A stretch of DNA of 64,000 bases, from the NCBI GenBank assembly GCA_963666275.2, contig CAXXOA010000002.1, forward strand, positions 576,001-640,000. The letters are read 5' to 3'. This stretch comes from Oceanispirochaeta sp. (GTDB taxonomy: Bacteria > Spirochaetota > Spirochaetia > DSM-2461). Positions 47,242 through 62,870 of this stretch are shown in pieces. Numbering within the stretch: position 1 is the first letter of the stretch; each line of letters begins with the position of its first letter. The position numbers and the translations under genes are program-made. The notes beneath the pieces are model-generated. The model worked only from the letters and a program-made list of their open reading frames with translations, was not told the DNA's origin and did no database searches.

Positions 47242-47270
47242 TTGACAAGTTAAATGGTTTTTTATACTAT
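47242..47270 (+). promoter_or_regulatory. sigma70-type promoter of the tRNA transcript
   Basis: TTGACA-N17-TACTAT. Confidence 0.75.
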
Positions 47271-47281
47271 TAGCCACCATC

Positions 47282-47362
47282 GGGCTGGTCGTAAGCTTCG
47301 CTTACTGCTCGCCCATGCATCCGGGGCTAGTCGTAGATTCGTCTACTTCTCGCCCATGCATC
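47282..47362 (+). repeat. Two tandem ~40-nt hairpin units in the tRNA leader
   Basis: GGGCTGGTCGTAAGCTTCGCTTACTGCTCGCCCATGCATC and GGGCTAGTCGTAGATTCGTCTACTTCTCGCCCATGCATC. Confidence 0.85.
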
Positions 47363-47365
47363 TAA

Positions 47366-47439
47366 GGGCCTATAGCTCAGTTGGTTAGAGTCCCTGACTC
47401 ATAATCAGGTTGTCCTAGGTTCAAGTCCTAGTGGGCCCA
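47366..47439 (+). tRNA. tRNA with CAT anticodon, most likely tRNA-Ile2 (lysidine)
   Basis: Cloverleaf with CCTGA CT CAT AA TCAGG; paired G1-C72 (not initiator); C4-G69 and C5-G68 match TilS determinants. Confidence 0.92.
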
Positions 47440-47531
47440 CTAAGCACTCCATTTTTGGAGTGCTTTTTTTATGTCTAAACGCTTATAATACATGGGTTTA
47501 ATGTGTTTTAGATAAAACGGGTGTCTGGTTT
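47419..47531 (+). repeat. Left att repeat (tRNA 3' end, terminator and flank)
   Basis: 47419-47470 identical to 56037-56088 (52 bp); gap-free similarity continues 61 bp with 9 mismatches. Confidence 0.92.
47442..47470 (+). terminator. Intrinsic terminator of the tRNA
   Basis: AAGCACTCC..GGAGTGCTTTTTTT. Confidence 0.85.
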
Positions 47532-48095
47532 TTAACGGGGACTGACGCCTTTATCGACGCCAATTGAAAATTCTTATGGTCCTGGAATGATGAAGGAATT
47601 CTGTTTAATCCGGAAAAGTTTCTATTTTACCTGCTCTCACGACCGCATCGCATAATGGGTATTATGAAGTATGAAAACATATCTTTTATGTACTACAAAG
47701 CTCTCTATCAAGAATAAACATAAGAAAAAAAATAAAAAAGAAGGGGTAGTATTTAAGTACCAGAAAAATACTACTTTCATTTTTAACATACTACTTACGT
47801 GCATTTTGCATCTATTTATAACACTTATTTACTACCTATTTCTGGATAATCTCTCAGTCAGTTGTCAATCAGATTTTTGATCCTATAAAATCATCATTGA
47901 TTTATTTCTGGTTTGTTGTATTAATAAGATTGTTTAAGGTTTTCATAAGGGTCGAAAAAGTTTTTCTGCAACATGGGTATTATGAAAACAGCTTTTTTTA
48001 ATTGCTCTTCATTATACCTCAATAAATAACAGACTCATAAAAAATACCGGTGAAAATCTTCTTTAAGACATAGTTATGAATCTCTGGAGGTCGAT

Positions 48096-48152
48096 ATGAA
48101 TATTATTCGAATAGTTTATTTCAGTGTCAAAAAATGTGTGGGAATAAATTGA
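48096..48152 (+). CDS. 18-aa leader or remnant ORF MNIIRIVYFSVKKCVGIN
   Basis: GGAGG RBS at 48086-48090; stop overlaps the next ATG (TGATG). Confidence 0.4.
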   Translation: MNIIRIVYFSVKKCVGIN

Positions 48153-49876
48153 TGGCCTGGGGATTCAGCACCATACTGGAAGAGTTTAAACAGGATTACT
48201 ACGACCCTACTGATCCTATCGACCGGATGGTATACGAGGAGAACCAGAGAAAGCAGAACTTCTCCTTCGGGATCGTCACGGACAATCAGGACCCGGATAA
48301 ACGGGGACGTATCAAAGTGCATTTACCCATGATTGCCAAAAACTATATCAGTAAATGGATCTGGATATTCCGCCCCTACGGGGGAGACAACAAAGGCATC
48401 TGGGCCCTGCCCGATATAGGTGATCAGGTCATGATCGCTTTTATCAGAGGCGATATCCATCATCCCGTCTGCATCGGAGGAATGTACACGCCCCGGCACA
48501 GGCCTCCGATCAAAGACAATCCGGACAACAACATCAAAGCCATAAAAACCAAAGCCTGTTACCTTCTCATGGATGAGACTCCCGGAGAGGAACGGATGGA
48601 AGCTTCTATCAAGGATGGACAGATCCGCGTGATGATCGATACCAAGGGGGTTCATCTGACCAATGAGCTGGGTGGAATTGATATACAGTGCAGGAAACTG
48701 GCCATTGCCGGAGGAGCTTCTACGATTCAGACTGAAAAAGACCTGAGCATTAAGACAGGTGGTAATCTGAACATGGAGGCCAAGAGTAACCTGGCCATCA
48801 GTGCCGGTGGGGATATCACCATAAAGGGAAGTACAGTCGACCTGAAGGGAAGCACAGGCGTCACAGCCGAGGGCAAACAAATTGCCAAAGAGAACGACCC
48901 TGTGGCAGGTATGGACATGCATGATATAGAAGTGCCCACCAATAGCGGAACCAAAAAGGTTCCCGCCGTACGCCACCCCTATCTCGGTAAACTGGTGGAT
49001 AAACTGAGCGGGGATGTCACCATCGGCGGCAAGGCGGCGGCTACTCAAGGCTCCAAGAGTGAGTTTGGGGCTCCAGGGCACTTCCCCATGCTTCCGGGAA
49101 TCAAGTTTTCCAGCAACCCCGACAATATGGGAGAGGTCACAGGCGGCTGTATCGACAGCGTGAAGATCAACGGCAACCCTGCGGCGGTTATGGGCAGCTC
49201 TGTAACCACCTGCGATGACGCGGGCCAGAGTGACCAGTGCAAGGTCCTCGCTCCCGGTACGGTAGTCACCTTCCCCATTCAATACCCCGGTCAGGACCCG
49301 GAGCAGTACAAACGAGACGGTGGGTTACCTATCAATGTATCAAACCCGACGGTGTATACAGCGGCGGAAGCGGCGTATGCCACGGAGCCCAAGAGCCTGA
49401 CGGCCCTGCAGTGGAGCGCCAGCGAAGTCAACAAAGGGGAAGAGGTCACCCTGAGCTGTTCCACAAGCGGTGTGAAAGATGGTGCGGGGGTGATGTTCAG
49501 TATCTATCCCGAAGGGGCGGATACGGAGGTGGATCCTCCTTTGATGGATATCAGGGGAGAGAACAAAGGCAGCCGGGCTGAGGTGAAGTGGATTGCCAAG
49601 GATATTCGGAAGGCTGATGGGGATCAGCCTATGAAGTGGTTTTTTACGGCCTGGACGCTGTATTGTCCGAAGGAAACGAGCGGGATGATTCGGGTTGTTC
49701 AGCCCTATAAACATAAATTTGTTAACAAACAAAATGAACCTTTAGCTAATCGAAACTATACACTTCGATATTCATCGGGAAACACACTTCAAGGGACAAC
49801 TGATGGTGATGGGTATATAGAGATTGATGACCTTCATCCTGGAAAGTTCAAGATAGAAATTGAGGTGGCAGAATAA
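48152..49876 (+). CDS. Phage baseplate V (gp5/VgrG OB-fold) - PAAR-like - TTR-like fusion spike protein
   Basis: GIVTDNQDPDKRGRIKV..LPDIGDQVMIAF..PVCIGGMY (gp5 OB fold); beta-helix; VTIGGKAAAT and VKINGNPAAV (PAAR-like); PLANRNYTL..GTTDGDG (TTR-like). Confidence 0.8.
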   Translation: MAWGFSTILEEFKQDYYDPTDPIDRMVYEENQRKQNFSFGIVTDNQDPDKRGRIKVHLPMIAKNYISKWIWIFRPYGGDNKGIWALPDIGDQVMIAFIRGDIHHPVCIGGMYTPRHRPPIKDNPDNNIKAIKTKACYLLMDETPGEERMEASIKDGQIRVMIDTKGVHLTNELGGIDIQCRKLAIAGGASTIQTEKDLSIKTGGNLNMEAKSNLAISAGGDITIKGSTVDLKGSTGVTAEGKQIAKENDPVAGMDMHDIEVPTNSGTKKVPAVRHPYLGKLVDKLSGDVTIGGKAAATQGSKSEFGAPGHFPMLPGIKFSSNPDNMGEVTGGCIDSVKINGNPAAVMGSSVTTCDDAGQSDQCKVLAPGTVVTFPIQYPGQDPEQYKRDGGLPINVSNPTVYTAAEAAYATEPKSLTALQWSASEVNKGEEVTLSCSTSGVKDGAGVMFSIYPEGADTEVDPPLMDIRGENKGSRAEVKWIAKDIRKADGDQPMKWFFTAWTLYCPKETSGMIRVVQPYKHKFVNKQNEPLANRNYTLRYSSGNTLQGTTDGDGYIEIDDLHPGKFKIEIEVAE

Positions 49877-52209
49877 TGGGAAATAAAGTAGTAGTTTTTG
49901 ATGGTGAACAGAATGATCCAGAAGATAAGATCAGCTACCTTCTGGAACCATTCATAAATATCTTTCCCCGATCCAAGGATAAATGTTTTACCACGATTGA
50001 ATGGGAAGAGGAAGCCGCAGGAATAGCGACATCCTATGTTTTCAATAATGAATATGTAAAAGAGTTTTCACTTAATGATAAAGTAAATAATTCTTATGGA
50101 GAGGAAATCCCCGTTGATTCATTCGGCTTTAAAAAGATTGACGGACTATTTTATGTAGATCTCAGACGAAAGCTAATCTACACAGATATACACGGAGAAG
50201 TACAGGCGGATGTATATGGTTCGACCAAAAAAATTAGTTTTTTCTTTGAAAGAGCACTGGGAGAACATAGGCTGTTAAAACAGAATATAACCTATGTTTT
50301 TAATAAGATTTACGATTTTTTTACTCATCACATAGGGACTCCCGGAGAAGAGGCATACGGTATTGAAGATGGCCTGAAATGCTATGAAGAAGTTGTTTTT
50401 CGTATAACTGGAGAAAATCAAGGCATTACCCTTCTTGATGAGCACAATCAGGAATATACCGAATATCATATTGATACATCAGATATTCAAACAGATGTTA
50501 AGGGTATGCATGAAATGCAGCTTCTTTTTACCGGCTCGTCTGATGCCATCAGTAATGACAGTATAGTTACCATTGAGGTACGAGGTTTTTCCAAAAACGA
50601 TTCTGAAGGAGAGATATTAGCCTCGTTGGATATTACCCTCATGACAAACAAGCTTCTACCTTCCATAGATACAATAAAAGAAGAAGACTTCAATATATGG
50701 GTTTATCCAGGAGAATCAGGAGAAGAATCTGAGCATAATGGCATCCAGAGATTGAAATACATATGTAATCAGGTCATTTCACGGCATAAAGGAATAAGTG
50801 ATTTTCATTTTCTTACTGAAAACGGAGTCTACTGCGAAGACATGAAGGGTGCTCTGGCTTCCTATTTAGAAAGTTTTCCCCAAACGGAGAATACTGGGTT
50901 CTATCCTTACGGAGATAAGCTGACCACCTTGGGATGTAATCCGCTAATAGAAGAGTATTTTTCTACTGAATACGGGATTCCTAAAGATAAAATAAAAGGA
51001 TGTTTCGTTGATAAGAGACTTCTTATTGGTGATGAAACAGGAACTGAACTGAATAAAACAGACGGACTGATAGATCTTTATGAAAACGTAGTTAAAGTTT
51101 TTCAAAGGAAGTTTGTCGAACGGGCTAAAGCATACGTAGACGTTTCCCACAGCTGGTTTAGCAATGCCTCCCAGAACCCCAATTACAAAATGGGCACGAT
51201 CACACTAACCAGTGATAGAACCACGAATGATGGTAAAACATTACCTGCAGGAACAGAGGTGAAAGTTTCCTATGAATTTAATGCTATAAAGAAGGGCGAT
51301 GATGGTGCAAAGGAAGATGATTACTCGGCCAAACTACCATTTGATGATGAAGGAAACCCTAAAGCGGGAGAATATCAGATTGAGGCAACCCTTAATGGAC
51401 AGAAAATAAGCAGTAAGGTCTCTTTATCGGTAGAAGACCTAAAAACAAGAGTAGATGTTAATCATAATGAAAACAAGGGAAATTATGCTAAAAATATAGC
51501 AGGGACAGGTAGTGAAGACTTCCAGAATTGGGGGATGCCATATGGGTTTGGAAAAAAAGACACCCTGGAGACTCATATGGGAAGAGAAACTATTGACACA
51601 GGAAACCTTAAGAACAGAAGTGAATATAAAGAAAATAATGACAAGAGCATCTATCCCGGTGATACGGAGACGAGAAGGCCAAAGATATTCGGTATAGACT
51701 GCTCCGGATTTGTGGAAAACTGTCTGAAAGAAATAACCTTTGGTGATTCCAATAAAACAAAAATTGTGCCCTTCGACAATCTGAAAGGCCAGGGAGATTT
51801 TTACACAGGTAAAACAGAACGGATTTCCCGAACTATCCCCACAACCGAAGAGAGGAATGAAAGGATAAGGATCGGCGATCTGTTCTGGAATGATGGGAAA
51901 AATGCTCATGTAGCCATTGCTTATGGAAAAGGTGATGAAACGAATGAAGAAGCGGAACTTTCGTCGGAAAAGGAAACAAAGGATGGAGCGACGATAACTT
52001 TTCTAGACCATAAAAAGATTGAAATTATTCATGCTTATGGGAATTCATATAGGTTAAAGGCGGATAGTTACCAAGTAATAAATACGGTTACTAAAGAGTA
52101 TACCGATACAATTAAGGCATGTGTGGCAAAAACTGTTAAGTCTCCCTTTCAATTATGGTCCACAGAAATTGGAAACAGAAACATAGGTAGGGTTTACCTA
52201 TGGAAATAA
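49876..52209 (+). CDS. Putative effector with C-terminal NlpC/P60-like cysteine peptidase/amidase
   Basis: PYGFG..GIDCSGFV..GDLFW..HVAI..IIHA; no signal peptide; TAATG coupling to the spike gene. Confidence 0.65.
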   Translation: MGNKVVVFDGEQNDPEDKISYLLEPFINIFPRSKDKCFTTIEWEEEAAGIATSYVFNNEYVKEFSLNDKVNNSYGEEIPVDSFGFKKIDGLFYVDLRRKLIYTDIHGEVQADVYGSTKKISFFFERALGEHRLLKQNITYVFNKIYDFFTHHIGTPGEEAYGIEDGLKCYEEVVFRITGENQGITLLDEHNQEYTEYHIDTSDIQTDVKGMHEMQLLFTGSSDAISNDSIVTIEVRGFSKNDSEGEILASLDITLMTNKLLPSIDTIKEEDFNIWVYPGESGEESEHNGIQRLKYICNQVISRHKGISDFHFLTENGVYCEDMKGALASYLESFPQTENTGFYPYGDKLTTLGCNPLIEEYFSTEYGIPKDKIKGCFVDKRLLIGDETGTELNKTDGLIDLYENVVKVFQRKFVERAKAYVDVSHSWFSNASQNPNYKMGTITLTSDRTTNDGKTLPAGTEVKVSYEFNAIKKGDDGAKEDDYSAKLPFDDEGNPKAGEYQIEATLNGQKISSKVSLSVEDLKTRVDVNHNENKGNYAKNIAGTGSEDFQNWGMPYGFGKKDTLETHMGRETIDTGNLKNRSEYKENNDKSIYPGDTETRRPKIFGIDCSGFVENCLKEITFGDSNKTKIVPFDNLKGQGDFYTGKTERISRTIPTTEERNERIRIGDLFWNDGKNAHVAIAYGKGDETNEEAELSSEKETKDGATITFLDHKKIEIIHAYGNSYRLKADSYQVINTVTKEYTDTIKACVAKTVKSPFQLWSTEIGNRNIGRVYLWK

Positions 52210-53537
52210 AAAGGTACTTCTTGTTATTAACAATATTTTTACAAGGATTTTTTAACCTTATGGCGAATGATGTTCAAATAACTAGAAAAGAAAAAATGGG
52301 TTGGATTACTCCTCAGGAATTGAATATGAGGGGAGGTATGGAAACATATGAGGGTATACATAGTCTTACTCTTGATGGAGATCACAGGCCTGTATTAAGG
52401 GTTGGAAGAAGATCTTCTTATACCACAGATGAAAACTTGAATCTTTATTTGAGAAATGATGGTTCCAAGTTTATTGATGATACTTTTTTTTATTCAAAGG
52501 GAGAGACATATGTTCTGTCTGGTAATCTAGAAGAGTATAAGTTGCAAATGAGAAAATCCATTGACAATGATTTTAAAGTTATTCTCAATGTTGAACATCC
52601 TGAATATATTAGCACTGGATATGGAGCTTCTCAATGCATCCCTCAAGCTAGTGGCGATGTGATATTTTGGGAAAGAAATACCGAGAGCTGCCTCCGAGCA
52701 CTCTACTCCGTAGAAAAAAACACAGTTAGCCCCCTCTTTCCCATTGATGAAAATGACGCATTTTTTCTCCGTTTTATCGACGAATACGGGTACCATTATT
52801 TTTACAATGAAGTCCTGGATATCAATGGAAATTATGTCGCCCCCTTGCAGTGGGCCGTTCCTGAAGGAGATTCAAAATGGACTCAAGGCGGGAAGATTCA
52901 GGGGGGTAATTCAAATAATTTTTTCTATAGCTTTGTCGAAACAGAAGGGAATGAATATAAAGACGCTGCTGATAGCTGGGAATATGAAACAGGAATAAAA
53001 ATTTACTCCATCTTCCGTTGTAAAGAATACTGGGAAGTTATTTATGAAGGAGTCGCTCCATTAAATCAAGTAATCACCACGCGACGCGGGCCAGTGCTAA
53101 GTATTGCTCCTCCCCTGAAAAATTACACAAGCACACAATTGGAAGAACAGATCTACAACAACACCACCATGGATGAAGAAGGTCGCATCTACTACATGGA
53201 ACTGGATGCGGATGAACTGCGAGTTATGCGGGTCACCGTAGATCTGGATGTAAAGTTTATAAAATGGGCCCGTGACGGTATTACAGAAGCTCAAGTCTCT
53301 ACCCCTCCTGATGAGATTGTCTGGTATCTGGAACAGGCTACCCCGGAAGAACTCAGACTGTTCCGGAATGCCTTTTTTGCTTTGAAAAATTACCAATTTA
53401 AAAGTGATGATTTAACAGATTACTTCAGCCGGTATAGCTGGTACAAACCGAATCATTCCGTAAAAGCGGATGCAGCATTGCTTTCTGATAATCAGAGACG
53501 GCTTCTGGATTTGATTAGGCAGTATGAAGAGAAATAA
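52200..53537 (+). CDS. Exported YARHG-domain protein (putative immunity)
   Basis: Signal peptide; C-terminal ELRLFRNAFFALKNYQFKS.DL.DYFSRYSWYKP; overlaps the effector stop. Confidence 0.7.
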   Translation: MEIKRYFLLLTIFLQGFFNLMANDVQITRKEKMGWITPQELNMRGGMETYEGIHSLTLDGDHRPVLRVGRRSSYTTDENLNLYLRNDGSKFIDDTFFYSKGETYVLSGNLEEYKLQMRKSIDNDFKVILNVEHPEYISTGYGASQCIPQASGDVIFWERNTESCLRALYSVEKNTVSPLFPIDENDAFFLRFIDEYGYHYFYNEVLDINGNYVAPLQWAVPEGDSKWTQGGKIQGGNSNNFFYSFVETEGNEYKDAADSWEYETGIKIYSIFRCKEYWEVIYEGVAPLNQVITTRRGPVLSIAPPLKNYTSTQLEEQIYNNTTMDEEGRIYYMELDADELRVMRVTVDLDVKFIKWARDGITEAQVSTPPDEIVWYLEQATPEELRLFRNAFFALKNYQFKSDDLTDYFSRYSWYKPNHSVKADAALLSDNQRRLLDLIRQYEEK

Positions 53538-53545
53538 TGTATGCG

Positions 53546-55117
53546 TCAAATAAACACAGGCCCTTTATCAGCCGTAATGTTATCTTTTAAATTCCATGGT
53601 AATAATTCTTCCCATTCTTGTTCATTATTGATGAACGGAGCTTTAGAGAAAACATAATGCAGATAATCAAAGGGATTCAAGTTATTTTGTTTTGCAGTCT
53701 CAATCAGAGAATACATCCCGCAGGAACTGTCTGCCCCTTTGGGATTCCCGGAAAATAGCCAGTTTTTCCTCCCCAGAACAAAAGGACGAATAGCATTTTC
53801 ACTGGCATTATTATCCGGAGTCAGATAGGGGCTTTCCAGATATCGAATCAAATAATCCCATTGATTCAATGCATAGTGAACCGCTTTTCCCAAAGCACTT
53901 TCCGGTAGAATATTCTCAGAACGTTTATCCAGCCATCGTTTAAATGCATCAAGAATAGGCTCAGCCTTGCTTTTCCGTTGTTCCTGGAACTCTTCAGGAG
54001 ATAATTTCTTACTCCTTAGATCATTTTCCAAGGCATAGAGCTTCTTGATATGCTTGATTCCTTCCAGAGCACTTTTAGATTTTTTACTGGCTTTATCAGC
54101 CTCAAAGAACTTCCTTCTGGCATGTGCAAAGCAGCCTACCAGATGTATATCGGGATTGCCTTCTACCGCGGTTTTGTATCCTTGATATCCATCGGTTTGC
54201 AGATACCCTTTAAAACTAGTGAGAAAATTCTTTGCATATTCCGATGCCCGTGTTGGATGGTACTCATAATAAACAGCTTGTTGTCCCGGAGGACCGCCTC
54301 TGGACAGCCACATATAGGATTTCTGTTTGTTATCCCGACCTGGTTCATTCAGAACCTGTACGGTTGTTTCATCCATTTGGATCACCGAACCGGATTTTAT
54401 GTGGGTTTTCAGCAGTTCAAAGAGAGGGAGAAGAGCTTCATAAGCCTTTTTCTGCCAATTACTCATATTCTGACGGCTGATTCGGGCTCCCATACGCTCA
54501 AACCGCTTTTCCTGTCGGTAAAAAGGAAGATGGTCTACGTACTTGTTTACCATCAGAAATGCCAACAGACCGGGAGTGACAATCCCTTTGGGGATAATGG
54601 TAGGCTCCGGAGGGGCAATCTTTACAGCAGGAACATCTTCATCGGCGGTTCCTTCGCAATTACCACAGGCATATTTTAACCGGACAATCCGTTCTACCCA
54701 GATACGGGGAGGGATCACATGCAGTTTCTCAGAGATTTCTTCTCCGATTTTTTTCAGTTCTGTTCCGCAGGCACAGTTTTTTTCATCTTCAGGAATATCA
54801 ATAATCCGTTCTTTGCGGGGAAGGTTCTCATCCAGAGGCTTTCTGCCTGTTTTCTTACGCTTGTAAGAATCTATTTGCTGTTCTTCCGAACAGTCTTCCT
54901 CAGGAGTCACAGCTTCATCTGTATCAAATAATTCAATCTGATCAGGAATATTTTCTGCTCTTCGACCGAATTGACGATGCAAAGCCAAAGCCAACTTCTC
55001 TTCAAGAAGCTGATATTTCTTTTCCCAGTTCTGATTCTGGGCTTCTGATTCAGCAAGTTGCTTTTTCAGAGATAAAAATTCTCTTTGTGCTTCCAACGGA
55101 AGAGAAGAAATATCCAT
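53546..55117 (-). CDS. tnpC: IS66 transposase TnpC
   Basis: C-x-C..C-xx-C Zn finger, HLPFYRQ, QMDET, LQTDGY, CFAHARRKF, DNNASENAIRP. Confidence 0.95.
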   Translation of the reverse strand: MDISSLPLEAQREFLSLKKQLAESEAQNQNWEKKYQLLEEKLALALHRQFGRRAENIPDQIELFDTDEAVTPEEDCSEEQQIDSYKRKKTGRKPLDENLPRKERIIDIPEDEKNCACGTELKKIGEEISEKLHVIPPRIWVERIVRLKYACGNCEGTADEDVPAVKIAPPEPTIIPKGIVTPGLLAFLMVNKYVDHLPFYRQEKRFERMGARISRQNMSNWQKKAYEALLPLFELLKTHIKSGSVIQMDETTVQVLNEPGRDNKQKSYMWLSRGGPPGQQAVYYEYHPTRASEYAKNFLTSFKGYLQTDGYQGYKTAVEGNPDIHLVGCFAHARRKFFEADKASKKSKSALEGIKHIKKLYALENDLRSKKLSPEEFQEQRKSKAEPILDAFKRWLDKRSENILPESALGKAVHYALNQWDYLIRYLESPYLTPDNNASENAIRPFVLGRKNWLFSGNPKGADSSCGMYSLIETAKQNNLNPFDYLHYVFSKAPFINNEQEWEELLPWNLKDNITADKGPVFI

Positions 55118-55158
55118 AAGAGAATTTTAGCAAAGACAGGAATTTGAGTAAATTCCTT

Positions 55159-55506
55159 TCAGGCAATTTCTGAATATTTTAATGTTTCGTGGGCTTTCCA
55201 GAAATCTATGCCCTTCAGAAGCATAGAGAGTTCTTCAAAGCTGATGGCTTTAGCAGCTTCTTCCGTATCTGGCCAGGGGAAGCGGTGCTTCTCCAGACGC
55301 TTCTGCCAGAGGCAGAAGCCTGTCTGATCCCAGTAAAGGGCTTTCAGAATCCGTCTCTGTTTATTACAGAACATAAAAAGAGAGCCGCAAAAAGGATCAA
55401 GAGACATTTCATCCTGAACTTCTACCGCCAAACCATTAATAGCTTTCCGCATATCGGTAACACCGGGTCGGATAAATATCGTGATTTGAGAGAAATCCTT
55501 AATCAT
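55159..55506 (-). CDS. tnpB: IS66 accessory protein TnpB
   Basis: TDMRKAINGL, LYWDQTGFCLWQKRLE. Confidence 0.93.
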   Translation of the reverse strand: MIKDFSQITIFIRPGVTDMRKAINGLAVEVQDEMSLDPFCGSLFMFCNKQRRILKALYWDQTGFCLWQKRLEKHRFPWPDTEEAAKAISFEELSMLLKGIDFWKAHETLKYSEIA

Positions 55507-55801
55507 TGCACTGTTCCAAGGTCTGAAGCAGTTTTTTCAATGTGATTGTATCAAAGTTCCGATCCAGTTTTATCCGGTAGCCATTCCATTGTAACTCAAT
55601 GGATGAGCCTTTGACTGTTTCCTTGGGCAATTTAACAGGAACTTCAACCAAGGATGGAGTTTTACGGTCATACCGCTTTTGCCATCCGTGGAAAGTCGTT
55701 GTTTTCAGTTTTTTATCCCGGCAGAACTGACTTACAGATTTTCCGGACTGTTTCCACTCTGCCAAAAGAGCGTAGCGCTGATCCATTGTGTATTGTTTCA
55801 T
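55499..55801 (-). CDS. tnpA: IS66 accessory protein TnpA
   Basis: WKQSGKSVSQFCR..TFHGW HTH. Confidence 0.88.
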   Translation of the reverse strand: MKQYTMDQRYALLAEWKQSGKSVSQFCRDKKLKTTTFHGWQKRYDRKTPSLVEVPVKLPKETVKGSSIELQWNGYRIKLDRNFDTITLKKLLQTLEQCND

Positions 55802-56036
55802 AGTAATTCTCCTGATGGAGATTGTACCGGGATGACTGGGAGATTTTTAGATGCGGTTTATTTGACGCTTACGAAATAATGTGTATCTGATGGTATTTAT
55901 ATCAGCTAAATTCTGACGCCAATACCGACGCCTTTATTATACAAACCTAGAAGCATTATATGGAAAACTTACTACATAACAGCTTCTTATGCGGTACGAT
56001 ACAGCCCTATACGTACTGCATAAGGACACTGTACAA

Positions 56037-56149
56037 GTTCAAGTCCTAGTGGGCCCACTAAGCACTCCATTTTTGGAGTGCTTTTTTTGTGTCTAAACGC
56101 TTGTATTGCATGGGTTTATGGTGTTTGGGATAAACCGGGTGTCTGGTTT
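56037..56149 (+). repeat. Right att repeat (duplicated tRNA 3' end and terminator)
   Basis: Direct repeat of 47419-47531. Confidence 0.92.
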
Positions 56150-56160
56150 GGAAGTAAGCG

Positions 56161-57732
56161 TCAAATAAACACAGGCCCTTTATCAGCCGTAATGTTATCT
56201 TTTAAATTCCATGGTAATAATTCTTCCCATTCTTGTTCATTATTGATGAACGGAGCTTTAGAGAAAACATAATGCAGATAATCAAAGGGATTCAAATTAT
56301 TTTGTTTTGCAGTCTCAATCAGAGAATACATCCCGCAGGAACTGTCTGCCCCTTTGGGATTCCCGGAAAATAGCCAGTTTTTCCTCCCCAGAACAAAAGG
56401 ACGAATAGCATTTTCACTGGCATTATTATCCGGAGTCAGATAAGGGCTTTCCAGATATCGGATCAAATAATCCCATTGATTCAATGCATAGTGAACAGCC
56501 TTTCCTAAAGCACTTTCCGGTAAAACATTTTCAGCCCTTTTATCCAACCACTGTTTAAATGCATCAAGAATGGGTTCAGCCTTGCTTTTCCGTTGTTCCA
56601 GGAAATCTTCAGGAGACAATTTCCTACTCCTTAGATCATTTTCCAAGGCATAGAGCTTCTTGATATGTTTGATTCCTTCCAGAGCACTTTTAGATTTCTT
56701 ACTGGCTTTATCAGCCTCAATGAACTTCCTTCTGGCATGAGCAAAGCAGCCTACCAGATGTATATCGGGATTGCCTTCTACCGCGGTTTTGTATCCTTGA
56801 TATCCATCGGTTTGCAGATACCCTTTAAAACCAGTGAGAAAATTCTTCGCATATTCCGATGCCCGTGTCGGATGGTACTCATAATAAACAGCTTGTTGTC
56901 CCGGAGGACCGCCTCTGGCCAGCCACATATAGGATTTTTGTTTGTTATCCCGACCTGGTTCATTCAGAACCTGGACGGTTGTTTCATCCATTTGGAGCAC
57001 TGGACCGGATTTTATGTGTGTTTTCAGCAGTTCAAAGAGAGGGAGAAGGGCTTCGTAAGCCTTTTTCTGCCAATTACTCATATTCTGACGGCTAATCCGG
57101 GCTCCCATACGCTCAAACCGTTTTTCCTGTCGGTAAAAAGGAAGATGATCCACATACTTGTTTACCATCAGAAATGCCAACAGACCGGGAGTAACTATCC
57201 CTTTGGGGATAATGGTAGGCTCCGGGGGGGCAATCTTTACAGCAGGAACATCTTCATCGGCGGTTCCTTCGCAATTACCACAGGCATATTTTAACCGGAC
57301 AATCCGTTCTACCCAGATACGGGGAGGGATCACATGCAGTTTCTCAGAGATTTCTTCTCCGATTTTTTTCAGTTCTGTTCCGCAGGCACAGTTTTTTTCA
57401 TCTTCAGGAATATCAATAATCCGTTCTTTGCGGGGAAGGTTCTCATCCAGAGGCTTTCTGCCTGTTTTCTTACGCTTGTAAGAATCTATTTGCTGTTCTT
57501 CCGAACAGTCTTCCTCAGGAGTCTGTGGTTCATCAGAATCAAATAATTCAATCTGATCAGGGATATTTTCTGCTCTTCGACCGAATTGACGATGCAATGC
57601 CAAGGCCAACTTCTCTTCAAGAAGCTGATATTTCTTTTCCCAGTTCTGATTCTGGGCTTCTGATTCAGCAAGTTGCTTTTTCAGAGATAAAAATTCTTTT
57701 TGTGCTTCCAACGGAAGAGAGGAAATATCCAT
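56161..57732 (-). CDS. tnpC: IS66 transposase TnpC
   Basis: Same motifs as copy 1. Confidence 0.95.
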   Translation of the reverse strand: MDISSLPLEAQKEFLSLKKQLAESEAQNQNWEKKYQLLEEKLALALHRQFGRRAENIPDQIELFDSDEPQTPEEDCSEEQQIDSYKRKKTGRKPLDENLPRKERIIDIPEDEKNCACGTELKKIGEEISEKLHVIPPRIWVERIVRLKYACGNCEGTADEDVPAVKIAPPEPTIIPKGIVTPGLLAFLMVNKYVDHLPFYRQEKRFERMGARISRQNMSNWQKKAYEALLPLFELLKTHIKSGPVLQMDETTVQVLNEPGRDNKQKSYMWLARGGPPGQQAVYYEYHPTRASEYAKNFLTGFKGYLQTDGYQGYKTAVEGNPDIHLVGCFAHARRKFIEADKASKKSKSALEGIKHIKKLYALENDLRSRKLSPEDFLEQRKSKAEPILDAFKQWLDKRAENVLPESALGKAVHYALNQWDYLIRYLESPYLTPDNNASENAIRPFVLGRKNWLFSGNPKGADSSCGMYSLIETAKQNNLNPFDYLHYVFSKAPFINNEQEWEELLPWNLKDNITADKGPVFI

Positions 57733-57773
57733 AAGAGAATTTTAACAAAGACAGGAATTTGAGTAAATTCCTT

Positions 57774-58121
57774 TCAGGCAATTTCTGAATATTTTAATGT
57801 TTCGTGGGCTTTCCAGAAATCTATGCCCTTCAGAAGCATAGAGAGTTCTTCAAAGCTGATGGCTTTAGCAGCTTCTTCCGTATCTGGCCAGGGGAAGCGG
57901 TGCTTCTCCAGACGCTTCTGCCAGAGGCAGAAGCCTGTCTGATCCCAGTAAAGGGCTTTCAGAATCCGTCTCTGTTTATTACAGAACATAAAAAGAGAGC
58001 CGCAAAAAGGATCAAGAGACATTTCATCCTGAACTTCTACCGCCAAACCATTAATAGCTTTCCGCATATCGGTAACACCGGGTCGGATAAATATCTTGAT
58101 TTGAGAGAAATCCTTAATCAT
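57774..58121 (-). CDS. tnpB: IS66 accessory protein TnpB
   Basis: One residue different from copy 1. Confidence 0.93.
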   Translation of the reverse strand: MIKDFSQIKIFIRPGVTDMRKAINGLAVEVQDEMSLDPFCGSLFMFCNKQRRILKALYWDQTGFCLWQKRLEKHRFPWPDTEEAAKAISFEELSMLLKGIDFWKAHETLKYSEIA

Positions 58122-58416
58122 TGCACTGTTCCAAGGTCTGAAGCAGTTTTTTCAATGTGATTGTATCAAAGTTCCGATCCAGTTTTATCCGGTAGCCATT
58201 CCATTGTAACTCAATGGATGAGCCTTTGACTGTTTCCTTGGGCAATTTAACAGGAACTTCAACCAAGGATGGAGTTTTACGGTCATACCGCTTTTGCCAT
58301 CCGTGGAAAGTCGTTGTTTTCAGTTTTTTATCCCGGCAGAACTGACTTACAGATTTTCCGGACTGTTTCCACTCTGCCAAAAGAGCGTAGCGCTGATCCA
58401 TTGTGTATTGTTTCAT
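58114..58416 (-). CDS. tnpA: IS66 accessory protein TnpA
   Basis: Protein identical to copy 1. Confidence 0.88.
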   Translation of the reverse strand: MKQYTMDQRYALLAEWKQSGKSVSQFCRDKKLKTTTFHGWQKRYDRKTPSLVEVPVKLPKETVKGSSIELQWNGYRIKLDRNFDTITLKKLLQTLEQCND

Positions 58417-58538
58417 AGTAATTCTCCTGATGGAGATTGTACCGGGATGACTGGGAGATTTTTAGATGCGGTTTATTTGACGCTTACTAATAAACTAGAA
58501 AATAGGGAGAAGAATTGGAAAAAGAGTAATTCGTTATC

Positions 58539-58571
58539 AAGAGCACCTCTTTGCGGGGGTGCTTTTCTTTT
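58539..58571 (+). terminator. Intrinsic terminator with no intact upstream gene
   Basis: AGCACCTC-TTTGCG-GGGGTGCT then TTTCTTTT. Confidence 0.65.
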
Positions 58572-58756
58572 GTGGAAAAGTTTCGTCATTCAATTACCAA
58601 TAACATGCCTTATGTCTATAATTGAATACTAATGATATATTCCAAATAGCGATTATCGCACAATATGCATAGTTCTGTGCAAGATTTTTGCCTTACTTTT
58701 TTGCTGCTCCCGCCATCCAATGGTGGGCAATTATAGAAACATATGAGGATTTCAAA

Positions 58757-58957
58757 ATGATTTATGAAAGCTACTATTGGAAAGAAGAGCTTTACCGAAA
58801 TGCAAAATGGTTAGTAGAATCCTTATCAAAAAAGAAATGGTTAGATCGAAGTTTCGCAAAGTTAGAGAAATGCTTGATGCTTTCAGCATATTCTTTGCGT
58901 AAACTATCTGAATCAAAAAAAATACCAGATGAGTTTATGAATAAACAGAAGTTCTGA
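58757..58957 (+). pseudogene. Truncated hypothetical gene (MIYESYYWKEEL...)
   Basis: GAGG RBS before ATG 58757; frame runs into the IS3 remnant. Confidence 0.5.
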
Positions 58958-59325
58958 ATCAGGTGATTCACAACCTGTTTCTTTACTCCGGGTCGCAGAA
59001 CTTTTTTATGATTTCCTTCTGAGCCATGTTGTCCAATGAAAGTTCAGCAACAAGCTTCTTTAGGTTTTCATTTTCAGATTCTAGTTGCCTTAACCTGACA
59101 ACTTCTTTGGTAGTCATTCCACCATATTTCTTTTTCCAATTGAAAAAAGTGTTCTCACTAATGCCATAGTCTCGGGCTATCTCTTTTACCTTCTTGCCGG
59201 CAACCTGTTCATTCAGGATTTTTACAATTTGCTCTTCTGTAAATCTCTTTTTCATCTCAGCCTCCATTGTATAATTGGGCTGAAAACTAATCTAGCTCGT
59301 GGTACAGTTTAAAGGGATGGGGTCA
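58945..59325 (-). mobile_element. IS3-family remnant: left end, orfA and start of orfB
   Basis: TGACCCC.. left end at 59325; A6G frameshift motif at the end of orfA; orfB missing; inner boundary approximate. Confidence 0.8.
58983..59255 (-). CDS. IS3-family transposase OrfA
   Basis: KRFTEEQIVKIL..GISENTFFNWKKKYGGM..LESENENLKKLVAELSLD. Confidence 0.9.
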   Translation of the reverse strand: MKKRFTEEQIVKILNEQVAGKKVKEIARDYGISENTFFNWKKKYGGMTTKEVVRLRQLESENENLKKLVAELSLDNMAQKEIIKKFCDPE

Positions 59326-59435
59326 GGCCGATGAAATAAAACTTCGGCACACCCTATATGGAGAACATAAGGGAATGTTGAAAGGGCACCTCATTAGATG
59401 AAAATTTTTTTTGAATGAAAATATAACTTTTCCCA

Positions 59436-59798
59436 TTATTTTGATTGAGTTTTCTGTTGAAAGATAATTTTCCACTTCCCTCCGATATTCTGCCAGACAG
59501 AACTGTAATTGACTTTATTTCGCTTATTCTTAATCACTTGCACTGCTTCATACATAAGTAAAATGACACTGTCTGAAAGTATGATTGAATCCCTTTTTTC
59601 TCCTATAAAGGAGACCCCATCAAGTAAGTCTAATTTTGAAATCTTAGAATGAATTTTTATTCCAGCTTCATTGATTTCAATACATTCATCATTAAGTAGT
59701 TCTGAAACAAATTTTTTATCACCCCTATTCTTATTATTAAGCAGCTTTTCTTCAAATTGAATCAGCTTCTTTTCTAAACCATCTAGAGAATCGTTCAT
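59436..59798 (-). CDS. DUF4440/NTF2-like protein
   Basis: EEKLL..R.D...LL.DE.IEI..G and SSVW...GKWKIIFQQ.T; GGAGG RBS. Confidence 0.75.
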   Translation of the reverse strand: MNDSLDGLEKKLIQFEEKLLNNKNRGDKKFVSELLNDECIEINEAGIKIHSKISKLDLLDGVSFIGEKRDSIILSDSVILLMYEAVQVIKNKRNKVNYSSVWQNIGGKWKIIFQQKTQSK

Positions 59799-60233
59799 GG
59801 TAATACCTCCAATGAACCTTCTTCATTATATTTCAATTGAAGAAATCAAATAATAGACAAACCCATAGAAAAACTGATTGAGATAAATTATTACTGTAAA
59901 AAACTCTATTTTCCCATTGTTTTTTACAAAAAGTTAACAGTATGAAAACCATTCCATTTCTGATGATTTCATCAGTCATCAAAATATCGCTTTCACAAGC
60001 TATAATACCTTATGCCTAATTGGTTTTGCTCATTGAAGTTTGCTACATAAAACATGAGAAGTATTCAGGATGGCCGCCACCCTGAACATGGTCTGTCTCT
60101 GCTTTGAGTGTAGCGGCGGATAGAGTTTGCCTGCGTTATCCAGGCGGAAGTCGTAGGATTGATCCTTCGTTTGGAGTTCAATAAAAGTATAGCAGAGACC
60201 GTATCCGGTTCTTTGGCCGGAACTTGCTTTGTC

Positions 60234-61097
60234 CTAAAGATCTGAGAGGGTTGTCTTATTCCGCCCGTTTGTCTTTGATTGATAAAGGGCATTGTCTGCC
60301 TTCCTGATAATTTCCGAAATCTCATTGTTCTGTTCTGTAATAATCGAGATTCCGATACTGATCGTTATTTTCATCTCATCCCGGTACTTTTCTTCAACTC
60401 TTTCTCTGATGCGCTCTGCCAATTCATAGGATTCAGGTTCTGTCGTATGGGGAAGCACGATCATAAACTCTTCACCGCCGAATCTTGTACAGATATCCAG
60501 CTCTCTCAGATCAAGACTCAGTAACTTGCTGATTTCCACCAGTACTTCATCTCCCGTTTGATGTCCGTATTTATCATTGATGGATTTAAAATGATCTATG
60601 TCGATCATCAGAAGAGAGAATGGAATTTTATAACGTTTGAAACGGCTTGTTTCTATGGATAAAACCTGCGTCAGATGCTGTCTGTTGTACAATTTGGTCA
60701 ATGTATCCACGGAGGAAAGCTCTACAATTTTTCCTAAAAAAGCACTTCCGATTATTTTGGGTTCAATAATTTCATCTTTAATATTTGTCAGATAATCCAG
60801 GGTCGCTACTGTAATTTCGACATTTCTATTGAGCTGTCTGGATAAGCTGTTTTTATGATCTATTATGGCCTTCCAGATCATAGTGGCTTCATCTTTATCG
60901 AAGACTTCATTGGTAAGATGAAAAAGAACTTTTACATACAAATCGCTTTCTGATTCCTTCAAAAGGGTTTCAAAGAGTTCTTTTTCTTCGGTTGACTGTA
61001 AGCGGTCCCCGGCAATTCCCGAAATAAACCTGGGTGTAAAAATTTTATTATTTATTATATCAAAAAGTTTCGTATGGTCATTTTTCTCTCTTTTCAT
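60234..61097 (-). CDS. Diguanylate cyclase (GGDEF)
   Basis: DTLTKLYNR, DIDHFKSINDKYGH, RELD I-site, GGEEF; start re-called at 61097. Confidence 0.92.
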   Translation of the reverse strand: MKREKNDHTKLFDIINNKIFTPRFISGIAGDRLQSTEEKELFETLLKESESDLYVKVLFHLTNEVFDKDEATMIWKAIIDHKNSLSRQLNRNVEITVATLDYLTNIKDEIIEPKIIGSAFLGKIVELSSVDTLTKLYNRQHLTQVLSIETSRFKRYKIPFSLLMIDIDHFKSINDKYGHQTGDEVLVEISKLLSLDLRELDICTRFGGEEFMIVLPHTTEPESYELAERIRERVEEKYRDEMKITISIGISIITEQNNEISEIIRKADNALYQSKTNGRNKTTLSDL

Positions 61098-61806
61098 CCC
61101 ATTTCCCTCTGGTTGAGAATATATACCCTCTTTTTCGTATATTTTTGAAATACACAGGCTTGGAAGGGTCTTCTTCAAAGTATTTTCTTAACCGCATCAC
61201 AAAGTTATCGACTGTACGGGTTTCCGTTTCTGTACTTGTTTTCCAAACCTTTTTAAGAAGTTCCTGTTTGGATAGTATCTGGTCTTCGTTTAAGACAAAG
61301 CATTTTAACAAGGCGCTTTCAAGAGGTGTCAATTTGAATGAACCTTTTAAGGATTGGCAGGTCGAATTTTCAAAATCGATCCGGTTTTTACCAAAGGAAT
61401 ATTCGTCCATATCGGAAATATTCTTTCTATACCAGCTCCTTCTTTTTAACATACCGCTGATCCTCAGGAGCAGTTCTTTGATATGAAATGGTTTCGGCAG
61501 ATAATCATCTGCTCCCAGGGAAAGACCTATAATTTTATCCCGGATTTCAGATCTTGCCGAAACAATAAGAATAGGTAACGTGGGTGAGTCTGATCGTATT
61601 TTCTCCAGTATTTTGAATCCATTGTAATAGGGGAGCATTATATCGAGTATGATGAGATCTATATCATCATTATTCGACAGTTTCATTGCCTGTCTTCCCT
61701 CTTCTGCCCAGAGAACCCTGTACCCTTCTGTTTCCAGATTGAATATAATGCTGGACGCCAGATTCTTATCATCTTCTATGAGAAGAATTAATTCTCCGTC
61801 GGACAA
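61078..61806 (-). CDS. OmpR-family response regulator
   Basis: IEDD, LDIMLP, GADDYLPKPF, wHTH RTVDNFVMRLRK. Confidence 0.93.
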   Translation of the reverse strand: MSDGELILLIEDDKNLASSIIFNLETEGYRVLWAEEGRQAMKLSNNDDIDLIILDIMLPYYNGFKILEKIRSDSPTLPILIVSARSEIRDKIIGLSLGADDYLPKPFHIKELLLRISGMLKRRSWYRKNISDMDEYSFGKNRIDFENSTCQSLKGSFKLTPLESALLKCFVLNEDQILSKQELLKKVWKTSTETETRTVDNFVMRLRKYFEEDPSKPVYFKNIRKRGYIFSTRGKWDEKREK

Positions 61807-61821
61807 AGTGCTCCCCTGTTA

Positions 61822-62784
61822 TTAATTATTCGCCTTATCTGCTGGCAGTTCAATGTAAAACAGGGTTCCCTTACTTTTTCTTTTTTGGCGAATCTGAATT
61901 TTCCCTTTATGTATTTGGAGAATTTCCCTGCACCAGTTGAGACCCAAGCCCAGGCCTTTGAGAGATAAATCGGGAAAAGTTTTTATCTGAACAAATTTTT
62001 TAAAAACGCGTTTTCTGAATTTGCGGGAGATACCGATTCCTTCATCCGAAAAAACCATAATGAACTTCTTCTTTTTATATCCTAAATATATTCTGATTTT
62101 CACCGGCGGAGAACCGAATTTTATTGAGTTATCAATCAGATTGCTTAAAACTGCCATAAAAGCGGAAGGATCAATTTTTATAAGGGATTTGGAATTTCCG
62201 ATTACAGCAATACTGTTGTCATCCAGGTTGAACCGGCTTTGAAGGACTTTGATCGCTGTTCTGATATATATATCCGCAGGAAGCAGTACCGGTGAGAAAA
62301 TGTCTTTTTTCTTATGGATTTTTGAGATTTCCAGAATGGATGCAATCATTTGATTCAGTCTTATTGTGTCGTTTTCCAAGCGGTTGAGAAAATCATAATA
62401 GGCACTGTCGGAAAGGTTCCTGTTTCCGAGTGTTTCACAAATCACCTGAATGGACGCAACAGGTGTCTTTAAGTCATGTGTAATGCTGAAAAAAAAATCA
62501 TCATAAATACGATTGATTTTTGTCTGTCTGATCAACTTATAAAACAGAATAACCGTTCCGGCAGAATTCAGAAAAATCAGAATGAGCCCGCAGAGGAAGA
62601 GAAAGGTTTTTAACGGAACAGTAAAAGTAGCGAAATTAATGACATGTTGCAGAGTCGGGTAGATTTCATCATCAGAGAAAAACAGCCGAACCCATAGCCC
62701 TATCAGTATCAGGAAGAAGATCTGTACCAGAACAAATAGAGTCACCGAAGTCTGAAGGCTGATTCTTTTTTTTGTTTTGCTCAT
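61822..62784 (-). CDS. Sensor histidine kinase
   Basis: Two TM helices, THDLKTP, NLIDNSIKF, DEGIGI, GLGLGL. Confidence 0.9.
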   Translation of the reverse strand: MSKTKKRISLQTSVTLFVLVQIFFLILIGLWVRLFFSDDEIYPTLQHVINFATFTVPLKTFLFLCGLILIFLNSAGTVILFYKLIRQTKINRIYDDFFFSITHDLKTPVASIQVICETLGNRNLSDSAYYDFLNRLENDTIRLNQMIASILEISKIHKKKDIFSPVLLPADIYIRTAIKVLQSRFNLDDNSIAVIGNSKSLIKIDPSAFMAVLSNLIDNSIKFGSPPVKIRIYLGYKKKKFIMVFSDEGIGISRKFRKRVFKKFVQIKTFPDLSLKGLGLGLNWCREILQIHKGKIQIRQKRKSKGTLFYIELPADKANN

Positions 62785-62870
62785 CTGACTTTTACACTTC
62801 TTTTACTTTACCAGTTATTCAGGCTGTTATGATTATAAATATAGTACATTTGTACTTGGGAGGTTTGATC

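Follow-up and report, generated by a model that had tools for sequence, protein, structure and literature searches.

A candidate orphan warhead cassette for an eCIS-like contractile injector on a tRNA-Met island of Oceanispirochaeta sp.

In a 64,000-nucleotide stretch of the Oceanispirochaeta sp. genome (assembly GCA_963666275.2, contig CAXXOA010000002.1, positions 576,001 to 640,000 of the forward strand; hereafter the window), three consecutive genes, g1 to g3, encode a gp5 spike-PAAR fusion, a predicted cargo effector and a candidate immunity protein. The window lies on contig C2 of the source genome (G000, 97% complete), and another contig of the same genome, C1, carries a locus resembling extracellular contractile injection systems (eCIS); the cassette very probably belongs functionally to an injector of the C1 type. 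The account that we consider probable as a whole is that the three genes form an orphan warhead module for this injector. Its spike would consist of two short, PAAR-less gp5 chains and one gp5-PAAR fusion chain, with the one covalent PAAR capping three beta-helix ends as a zinc-stabilised point. Immunoglobulin (Ig)-like and variable tail domains behind the PAAR would hold the cognate cargo effector, g2 would be delivered as a Cys-His NlpC/P60-type peptidoglycan peptidase to the periplasm of a competitor, and exported g3 would shield the producer and its kin. Since variability would be confined to a single spike chain out of three, a 6-kb cassette of fusion, effector and immunity gene would be enough to re-arm the machine, either in trans or by recombination via the conserved PAAR-Ig region.

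Features of the cassette, in positions of the window, are as follows.
48138..48152, + strand: scar of a short gp5 3' end (V-G-I-N-stop), matching the terminal codons of short gp5 on C1
48152..49876, + strand: g1, gp5 spike-PAAR-Ig-transthyretin (TTR)-like fusion, 574 aa (Pfam, AlphaFold2, fold searches)
48260..48847, + strand: g1 aa 37-232, oligonucleotide/oligosaccharide-binding (OB) fold and beta-helix, collinear with the entire short gp5
48860..49267, + strand: g1 aa 237-372, PAAR tip, joined to the spike part by a GSTG linker (fold match to 4jiw_D)
49382..49705, + strand: g1 aa 411-518, conserved Ig-like domain (fold match over aa 411-516)
49706..49876, + strand: g1 aa 519-574, TTR/prealbumin-like tail that is variable and opens the low-GC exchangeable module
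49876..52209, + strand: g2, predicted cargo effector, 777 aa (fold search, conserved Cys/His)
52200..53537, + strand: g3, candidate periplasmic immunity protein, 445 aa (C-terminal YARHG; signal-peptide-like N-terminus, by eye)

Other genomes compared are given G-numbers and compared loci L-numbers, G004 and G014 being the same records as L010 and L011. The literature compared includes PMC6899500, PMC8213781, PMC8651086, PMC10433429, PMC12135965, PMC13402684 and PMC7714669.

The spike-PAAR fusion and its exchangeable tail

Pfam and fold matches confirm what had previously been read from the letters of g1 without database searches (the sequence-only reading), namely a gp5 OB fold that lacks gp27 and continues in frame into a PAAR domain. 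Phage_base_V matched aa 40-112 (E 2.6e-23) and PAAR_motif PF05488 matched at E 2e-8 (34.8 bits against a cut-off of 27), with no Pfam match to gp27/GPD in g1, whose reading frame would extend to 580 aa if an upstream ATG at 48134 were used. In an AlphaFold2 model built from 51 sequences (pLDDT 82), the first half resembles eCIS spikes, the best Protein Data Bank (PDB) matches of the spike part being 9gtr_q and 7aef_q, and aa 242-366 superpose on the PAAR protein 4jiw_D (Z 9.0, root mean square deviation (rmsd) 1.8, 85 aligned); the gp5 and PAAR folds were thus both matched by the model. Among the candidate zinc ligands of the PAAR part, H257, H275 and C354 are invariant in the 51 sequences and H310 is kept in at least 90% of them. 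The lack of a gp27 fusion, which had been singled out as a departure, holds for g1 but is not unusual, since eCIS subtypes IIa-IIc are described with gp27 and gp5 split (PMC6899500). The fusion is not an assembly slip, because one sequencing run of this sample yielded a single 5,448-base contig that spans 48120-53567 with zero differences.

Behind the PAAR, the Ig-like domain matches BtaeB-NTD 9jdh_A (Z 11.0, rmsd 2.5) and other Ig folds (Z ~10). The tail is all-beta in the model and carries a prealbumin-like SpaA match over aa 522-569 (E 2.3e-4) whose 21.7 bits compare with a curated cut-off of 23.1. GC content is 0.537 over g1 aa 1-518, 0.345 in the g1 tail and 0.38-0.39 in g2 and g3, with 0.48 for the genome, and it falls at aa ~519 both in g1 and in its C1 paralogue; from this drop the exchangeable unit begins inside g1.

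The three genes had been described as coupled throughout. The TAATG junction of g1 and g2 and the 10-bp overlap of g2 and g3 are present in the sequence, but the TGATG at the head of g1 does not couple genes: it is the remnant of a short gp5 end and marks the point at which the cassette was cut out of a complete locus. The sequence further upstream of the scar is unrelated to that of the C1 locus, and no + strand open reading frame (ORF) of at least 70 aa lies in the interval between the preceding tRNA gene and g1.

An eCIS-like machine elsewhere in the genome

The sequence-only reading had predicted a contractile system encoded outside the window, and this is borne out by an eCIS-like locus at ~2.184-2.225 Mb of C1. 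A Pfam scan of 45 proteins of the locus identified two sheaths, a tube, a CIS_tube-LysM protein, a stand-alone GPD hub, Tail_P2_I, baseplate J, gp25, an AAA ATPase, DUF6760, three eCIS_core proteins and a LuxR regulator. The sheaths are two Phage_sheath_1 proteins, the tube matches Phage_T4_gp19 (E 1.8e-30), and a second tube-like gene of 142 aa was typed by BLAST only. Counterparts of Afp7, Afp9 and Afp11 were matched by CIS_tube (E 9.6e-35) with LysM, GPW_gp25 (E 2e-25) and Baseplate_J (E 8e-16), with TIGR02243 above cut-off, and the Afp8 counterpart is split into a Phage_GPD protein of 349 aa and two Phage_base_V genes, VgrG_rel matching both halves. The Afp15-like candidate is the AAA protein (E 8e-29), and the three eCIS_core genes reach E ~1e-20. 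No match to PF14065 (Afp16, DUF4255/Pvc16_N) was obtained, but control genomes likewise gave none, and the positional Afp16 candidate is a conserved gene of 183 aa that lies between those for baseplate J and a sheath. Gene order of the locus is the same in G010. The T6SS (type VI secretion system) families VipB (sheath, PF05943) and IcmF (PF14331) were not found in G000, whereas the E. coli control matched. From its gene content, the C1 machine would be an eCIS in structure, apart from the cap gene and the release mode.

Searching the genome with g1 by tblastn gave three further matches, all at C1:2.216-2.223 Mb. To the right of the structural block lie a 210-aa gp5 (2216409-2217041), a 628-aa fusion, an exported protein and a C39-like cargo, and after this fusion cassette come a headless PAAR-half cassette, another exported protein and a truncated cargo. 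The C1 fusion shares 90% aa identity (85% nt) with g1 over aa 1-518, and g1 is under purifying selection (dN/dS 0.067; 0.058 for the spike half). The tail of the C1 paralogue, 110 aa, is unrelated to the g1 tail. A 90%-identical paralogue with another tail and another cargo supports the earlier proposal of an exchangeable tip-toxin-partner module that acts with a machine encoded elsewhere.

Several other features of the C1 locus were recorded. In the exported partners of the C39-like cargos (C1:2218905-2220035, 2223597-2224751), which are encoded ahead of the cargo, an F5/8 type C (NADase_transloc) domain is present. To the left, an array (2182893-2195407, L008) consists of repeats of the C-terminal region of a protein of 1087 aa, and behind every repeat stand eCIS_core, a different cargo (CHAP-like, unknown and M23) and an exported partner, with 72-91% DNA identity among repeats. 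Within the locus, C1:2203623-2209783 (L001) holds conserved genes for an exported 458-aa protein, a 168-aa lipoprotein, a VWA-transmembrane-zinc-ribbon protein and an FHA protein, a set that could possibly be an envelope anchor or a sensing module. NrdG-like radical SAM, DUF1257, DUF2997 and pentapeptide-repeat genes are conserved there as well.

A short gp5 and the stoichiometry of the spike

The sequence-only reading had asked how one PAAR per chain could fit a trimeric spike. The question has a candidate answer, lying outside the window, in a second gp5 without PAAR: the short gp5 of C1 stands directly upstream of the C1 fusion, and in the model one PAAR caps both of two short chains. An hhalign comparison of short gp5 and g1 gave probability 100 over 198 columns, with the last residue, N210, pairing with K232, after which g1 continues into GSTG and the PAAR. 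PF05488 had no matches in G000 outside the two fusions, and the PAAR matches of G010, G014, G180 and G288 also lie within fusion frames; a search for DUF4280 PAAR-like genes found none in 5 genomes, but the control gave none either, hence it is uninformative. A gp5 tree of 43 rows, from which a motif filter had removed 9 fusions, places short gp5 to one side of a branch and fused gp5 to the other, with support 82/63 and 88/84. The short gp5 domain has a net charge of -13 to -29 in 12 of 15 cases and the fusion is near-neutral or basic. Over the last 62 spike residues, 12 of 14 pairs were compared, and in 10 of them the positive charge is greater in the fused chain.

A complex model of two short chains and one fusion chain (aa 1-375) scored 0.90, the best of 3 controls scoring 0.00; the mark for this score is reached by 116/157 solved complexes and 2/215 mismatched pairs, counts that are only rough here. 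Across runs at least 97% of contacts agreed, and the partner pLDDT was 83 or higher. Through its residues 207-209 one short chain touches PAAR residues 337-339 and the other PAAR 237-239, and a matching capping geometry is described for PAAR on VgrG (PMC13402684). The model supports, rather than demonstrates, a heterotrimer, because similar complexes are already solved and 2:1 was the sole ratio modelled. On this basis we favour a spike of two short gp5 chains and one fused chain with reasonable confidence; such a 2:1 spike would resolve the 3:1 problem, with the gp27 hub presumably trimeric. Three points weigh against it: branch support for the short gp5 clade is modest, the charge asymmetry is reversed in 2 of the 12 pairs, which are not independent, and the success of the 2:1 model may be a memory of solved spike-PAAR structures.

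With the same machine and cargo logic, each of the two gp5 forms could instead make a homotrimeric spike of its own: one of short gp5 only, lacking PAAR, and one of the fusion only, with a single PAAR as cap and the other two, together with their adaptors, standing aside or clipped off. Homotrimers are usual in solved contractile injection system (CIS) and phage spikes, and the PDB matches of the g1 spike mostly list three chains. In G346 (99% complete, 30 contigs), moreover, which has a CIS and a short gp5, neither a fusion nor a PAAR was detected, and specialised VgrG homotrimers with three cargo copies are known (PMC10433429). We nevertheless regard the homotrimers as unlikely: the GSTG linker has only four residues, so that three PAARs would be expected to crowd one tip, the short gp5 is strongly acidic and the fusion near-neutral or basic, the short gp5 stays single-copy while fusions multiply, and the 2:1 model yields a canonical cap.

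The predicted effector and its partner

g2, which has no signal peptide and no transmembrane segment, is laid out as an N-terminal Ig-like part, a helical part resembling peptidoglycan-binding domains and a C-terminal NlpC/P60 fold. An earlier reading of g2 as a cell-wall hydrolase is upheld by its model (pTM 0.83), whose top 21 VIA-align matches are all NlpC/P60-type or related cell-wall hydrolases, the best being 7cfl_A (Z 9.0, rmsd 2.4, 120 aligned). C609 stands in a DCSG motif, H678 and H719 complete a Cys-His-polar triad, and throughout a family of 41 sequences G606-D608-C609 and H678 are invariant. ESM Atlas places g2 in an NlpC/P60 cluster (0.94). This assignment is weakened by a Pfam NlpC/P60 match under cut-off (E 0.034) and by a Foldseek search with the entire g2 model that returned nothing at E<=0.001; a PDB profile search from six g2 homologues also gave nothing significant. 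Judging from the modelled fold, g2 would hydrolyse peptidoglycan. One g2 homologue, on an unrelated metagenome contig, adjoins a gene for the DUF4123 T6SS adaptor and another comes after a fusion in L029, while 400 genomes of the phylum held a single partial match to the family.

The YARHG domain of g3 spans aa 377-444 (Pfam, E 7.6e-16). One full-length homologue was found (48%), and ESM Atlas gave leads below 0.9 only. BLAST of g3 against the gene that follows a g2 homologue in L225 was not significant, and that pair gives no evidence of an immunity family in common. YARHG genes stand behind a different Cys-His-type cargo too (L018, G288). From this gene arrangement, g3 would be the immunity protein against g2; no relevant paper on YARHG as an immunity or effector partner was found in the full-text literature.

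Distribution of the fusion and variety of its cargo

A protein search with g1 returned 159 homologues, and all named ones having a taxon belong to Spirochaetales. Of 58 genome loci compared, 32 are on contigs titled as spirochaete or on small contigs that carry this gene (4 of them under other labels), and 26 are others. OB and PAAR occur in one ORF at 23 of the 32 mostly spirochaete loci and at none of the 26 others, 18 of which have a free PAAR. Among the 23 fusion loci, 8 have a short gp5, 10 have at least two CIS genes nearby and 11 have neither. Within the family, the fusion is present in 5 of 37 other genomes, with a short gp5 just upstream in all five (four adjacent, one with a gene between) and sheath genes in four. 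A sample of 400 genomes of the phylum gave matches in 5, two with full fusions, which makes the system patchy. The association of fusion and short gp5 is not uniform, and this counts against the proposed spike: the fetched DNA of 15 of the 23 fusion loci, many of them orphan or short contigs, shows no short gp5, G346 adds the opposite case described above, and G012 (80% complete) has sheaths with no fusion match.

Contig C2 of G288, surveyed over the first 100 of its 166 kb (L119-L123), combines a single short gp5 with six copies of the GPD hub and at least five fusion copies or fragments, three of them intact and two split or partial; different cargo and partner genes follow nearly every fusion and hub. 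A weak prealbumin-like C-terminal match was present in 2 of 3 hubs scanned, and the hub C-terminus may be a third cargo loading site. The contig as a whole is largely CIS; five of its six gp27 hubs are C-terminally extended, and four tandem YARHG-like genes stand behind one cargo.

Cargo is variable. Among the first genes downstream of fusions, 7 of 19 scanned encode M23 peptidases and the others are of unrelated types. A W-H-x-G-x-H (WHIX-like) motif occurs at a similar N-terminal position in 12 of 27 cargo proteins, as a motif only, and g2 is without it. The tail domains would bind the effectors that follow them; this part of the account is weakened by TTR-like tails that stand before several unrelated effector types. 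A strict pairing of tail type with effector type was sought and not found. As further observations, the fusions at L019:10644-12320 and L040:2-1729 have toxin-like tails (nuclease-like by eye, and M23-like), which makes them evolved rather than cargo effectors, and L012, L014, L034 and L037 carry large cargos (768-1463 aa) with a common N-terminal D-x-H-x-H amidohydrolase-like motif, one of them with an OmpA domain.

The downstream pairs, as effector plus exported partner, also bear on a quite different explanation, in which the three genes are prophage tail remnants (spike, tail-associated lysin and accessory gene) and no toxin module at all. Domains of the gp5 and NlpC/P60 types are indeed present in phage tails, as seen from PHROG matches and from a diffocin hub hydrolase among the g2 fold matches, and C1 has a prophage at 1.616-1.650 Mb, which we take to be Mu-like. 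This origin is nonetheless very improbable. No capsid, portal or terminase family matched any of the 45 C1-locus proteins, three of which are eCIS_core; the best 80 viral loci match g1 only to residue 273 and include no fusion; the PAAR part of g1 had no tblastn match in 50,697 phage records; and homologues are found with varying downstream pairs rather than only inside intact prophage tail operons, the latter being the outcome that the sequence-only reading had named as adverse to it. The prophage (C1:1616000-1650000) has its own sheath and spike by eye, and the third sheath gene of G000, considered as host machine, was rejected because it belongs to this separate element.

The tRNA-Met island

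The cassette lies in the first unit of an island bounded by attachment (att) repeats.
47366..47440, + strand: tRNA-Met(CAT), integration target (ARAGORN)
47419..47441, + strand: left att core, the 23-bp tRNA 3' end, followed by a terminator-like hairpin at 47442-47465
47542..47561, + strand: left CTGACGCC-N6-GACGCC repeat, a candidate integrase arm site beside island att copies, by inferred role
53539..55872, - strand: insertion sequence (IS) element located directly at the g3 stop; its duplicated 8-bp target, GAAATAAT, is at 53531 and 55873
55913..55932, + strand: right arm-like CTGACGCC-N6-GACGCC repeat
56037..56059, + strand: right att core closing the unit, an exact 23-bp copy of the tRNA 3' end

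This unit (47419-56059) contains g1-g3 and one IS, presumably of IS66-type organisation. The claim that the three genes are the only non-IS cargo is therefore accurate for the unit but not for the island, which runs at least 30 kb further with unrelated cargo and att repeats at C2:640830, 648572 (partial) and 653275. The tRNA-Met downstream flank is repeated in tandem in several relatives in the genus, e.g. G009, G010 and G011, and together with the further att copies around unrelated cargo this points to a genus-level hotspot. The unit looks to have been delivered by an integrase. Its bounding att repeats derive from the tRNA 3' end. That the module is mobile at present is not supported, with no cognate intact integrase found and no excision joint listed. 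The ORF list holds no intact integrase within the att-bounded unit, the PF00589 profile had no match within the island, and three integrase relics in the island are truncated, N-terminal only and 62% identical to a 412-aa frame in G010. Of the joints listed for three sequencing runs of one sample, taken from contigs only, none links att to att.

An orphan position raises the possibility that the window cassette is not loaded in trans and serves as a silent reservoir for recombination, or is retained mainly for immunity against kin with g2-like effectors. The donor promoter and the short gp5 were left behind, and promoter-like sites upstream of g1 are at chance (3 observed, 3.3 expected), which also tells against our own account, under which the cassette would be expressed and loaded in trans. 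The headless PAAR-half cassettes of C1 are usable by recombination only, and the comparison of the headless C1 cassette with the main gene is patchy, with 1-3 differences per 60 nt over aa 349-428 and 9-11 over aa 429-468. We consider this explanation rather improbable, given that g1, in contrast to the headless C1 fragment, is intact and full length with the low spike-half dN/dS reported above (the divergence may predate acquisition), and that full-length orphan fusions with their own cargo are common (the 11 of 23 loci without short gp5 and with fewer than two CIS genes). An active warhead remains the reading that we prefer.

Other observations at the island are as follows. Two near-identical IS copies (53539-58500) flank the 56037 att site, the second just past the att flank. 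Tandem att units at tRNA-Met (window 47419-64000; C2:640000-675000) share right-end sequence and arm-like repeats, and G009, G010 and G011 have similar att arrays at tRNA-Met with other cargo. Upstream of tRNA-Met (47270-47365) are two short repeats, GTCGTA...CTCGCCCATGCATC, that match several intergenic sites genome-wide.

Comparison with known systems and significance

The nearest described relatives are the eCIS of lineage II with split Afp8 (PMC6899500), with which the C1 machine shares two sheaths, tubes, an Afp7-like LysM protein, gp25, baseplate J, an AAA ATPase, DUF4157/eCIS_core genes beside toxins, and gp27 and gp5 as separate genes. The closest PDB spikes are those of the Streptomyces CIS (9GTR), Algoriphagus (7AEF) and Anabaena (7B5H). 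Unlike these eCIS, the C1 system has two gp5 genes with the PAAR (Afp10) fused to one, conserves exported, lipoprotein, VWA-transmembrane and FHA genes in its locus, and belongs to loci that add cargo through variable tails, immunity-like exported genes and tandem or orphan cassettes. Most antibacterial eCIS toxins are reported without immunity genes (PMC8213781).

In cargo handling the resemblance is to T6SS orphan vgrG/PAAR islands and to VgrG-TTR-Tle1 of enteroaggregative E. coli, with which the cassette would share a spike-borne adaptor tail that recruits cargo, an adjacent immunity gene and horizontal acquisition; mixed trimers of structural and specialised chains have been proposed there (PMC10433429). 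The differences are that G000 is without VipB/IcmF matches, that the spike is without gp27 and that the adaptor stands behind a covalent PAAR. VgrG heterotrimers are mostly treated as optional in work on the T6SS, whereas here a mixed trimer would be structurally required. The machine is eCIS-like and its cargo handling is T6SS-orphan-island-like, yet the machine itself is no T6SS.

Rhs and contact-dependent inhibition (CDI) systems carry orphan C-terminal toxin-immunity modules. Shared with them are headless conserved repeats each followed by a new toxin and immunity gene, tandem arrangement, low GC and suitability for recombination. Here, in contrast, the conserved handle of the right array is the half of a spike subunit that holds PAAR and Ig, that of the left array is the terminal part of the 1087-aa protein plus eCIS_core, and toxins are separate genes.

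PAAR proteins with C-terminal extensions (PMC8651086; c1882, 4JIW; Bacteroides, 8GRA) have the same three His and one Cys and a toxin-carrying or toxin-binding extension, but in the literature compared the PAAR is a separate gene or an N-terminal domain, while in g1 a whole gp5 chain precedes it. The WHIX-motif cargos resemble WHIX T6SS effectors, in which WHIX binds the spike C-terminal tail and which are described as T6SS-specific (PMC12135965). The full-text literature yielded no report of an eCIS in spirochaetes or of a PAAR fused to gp5/VgrG, subscription journals lying outside that search. The string "spiroch" is absent from the main text of PMC6899500, PMC8213781 and PMC8651086, and the dbeCIS/eCIStem tables may list such loci.

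In total, we lean, by a modest degree, towards a broader view in which Spirochaetota possess an undescribed antibacterial injector with an obligate 2:1 spike, made of a constant acidic pair and an exchangeable PAAR/adaptor chain, whose cassettes would be swapped at up to three loading sites (the spike-PAAR tail, the gp27 hub tail and eCIS_core) and would also occur as orphan units, perhaps with cell-anchored firing. In the CIS and T6SS literature compared, the PAAR cap is encoded apart from the trimeric spike, and duplication followed by fusion would be a new tip architecture, if conserved. If true, this would clearly exemplify a spike heterotrimer that is required by structure, a form that in the T6SS is mostly discussed as optional. 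Cargo arrays with exported partners point to T6SS-like kin protection in an eCIS-type machine, and YARHG proteins may act as immunity factors against Cys-His cell-wall peptidases. Free-living and gut spirochaetes would thereby gain a candidate interbacterial weapon.

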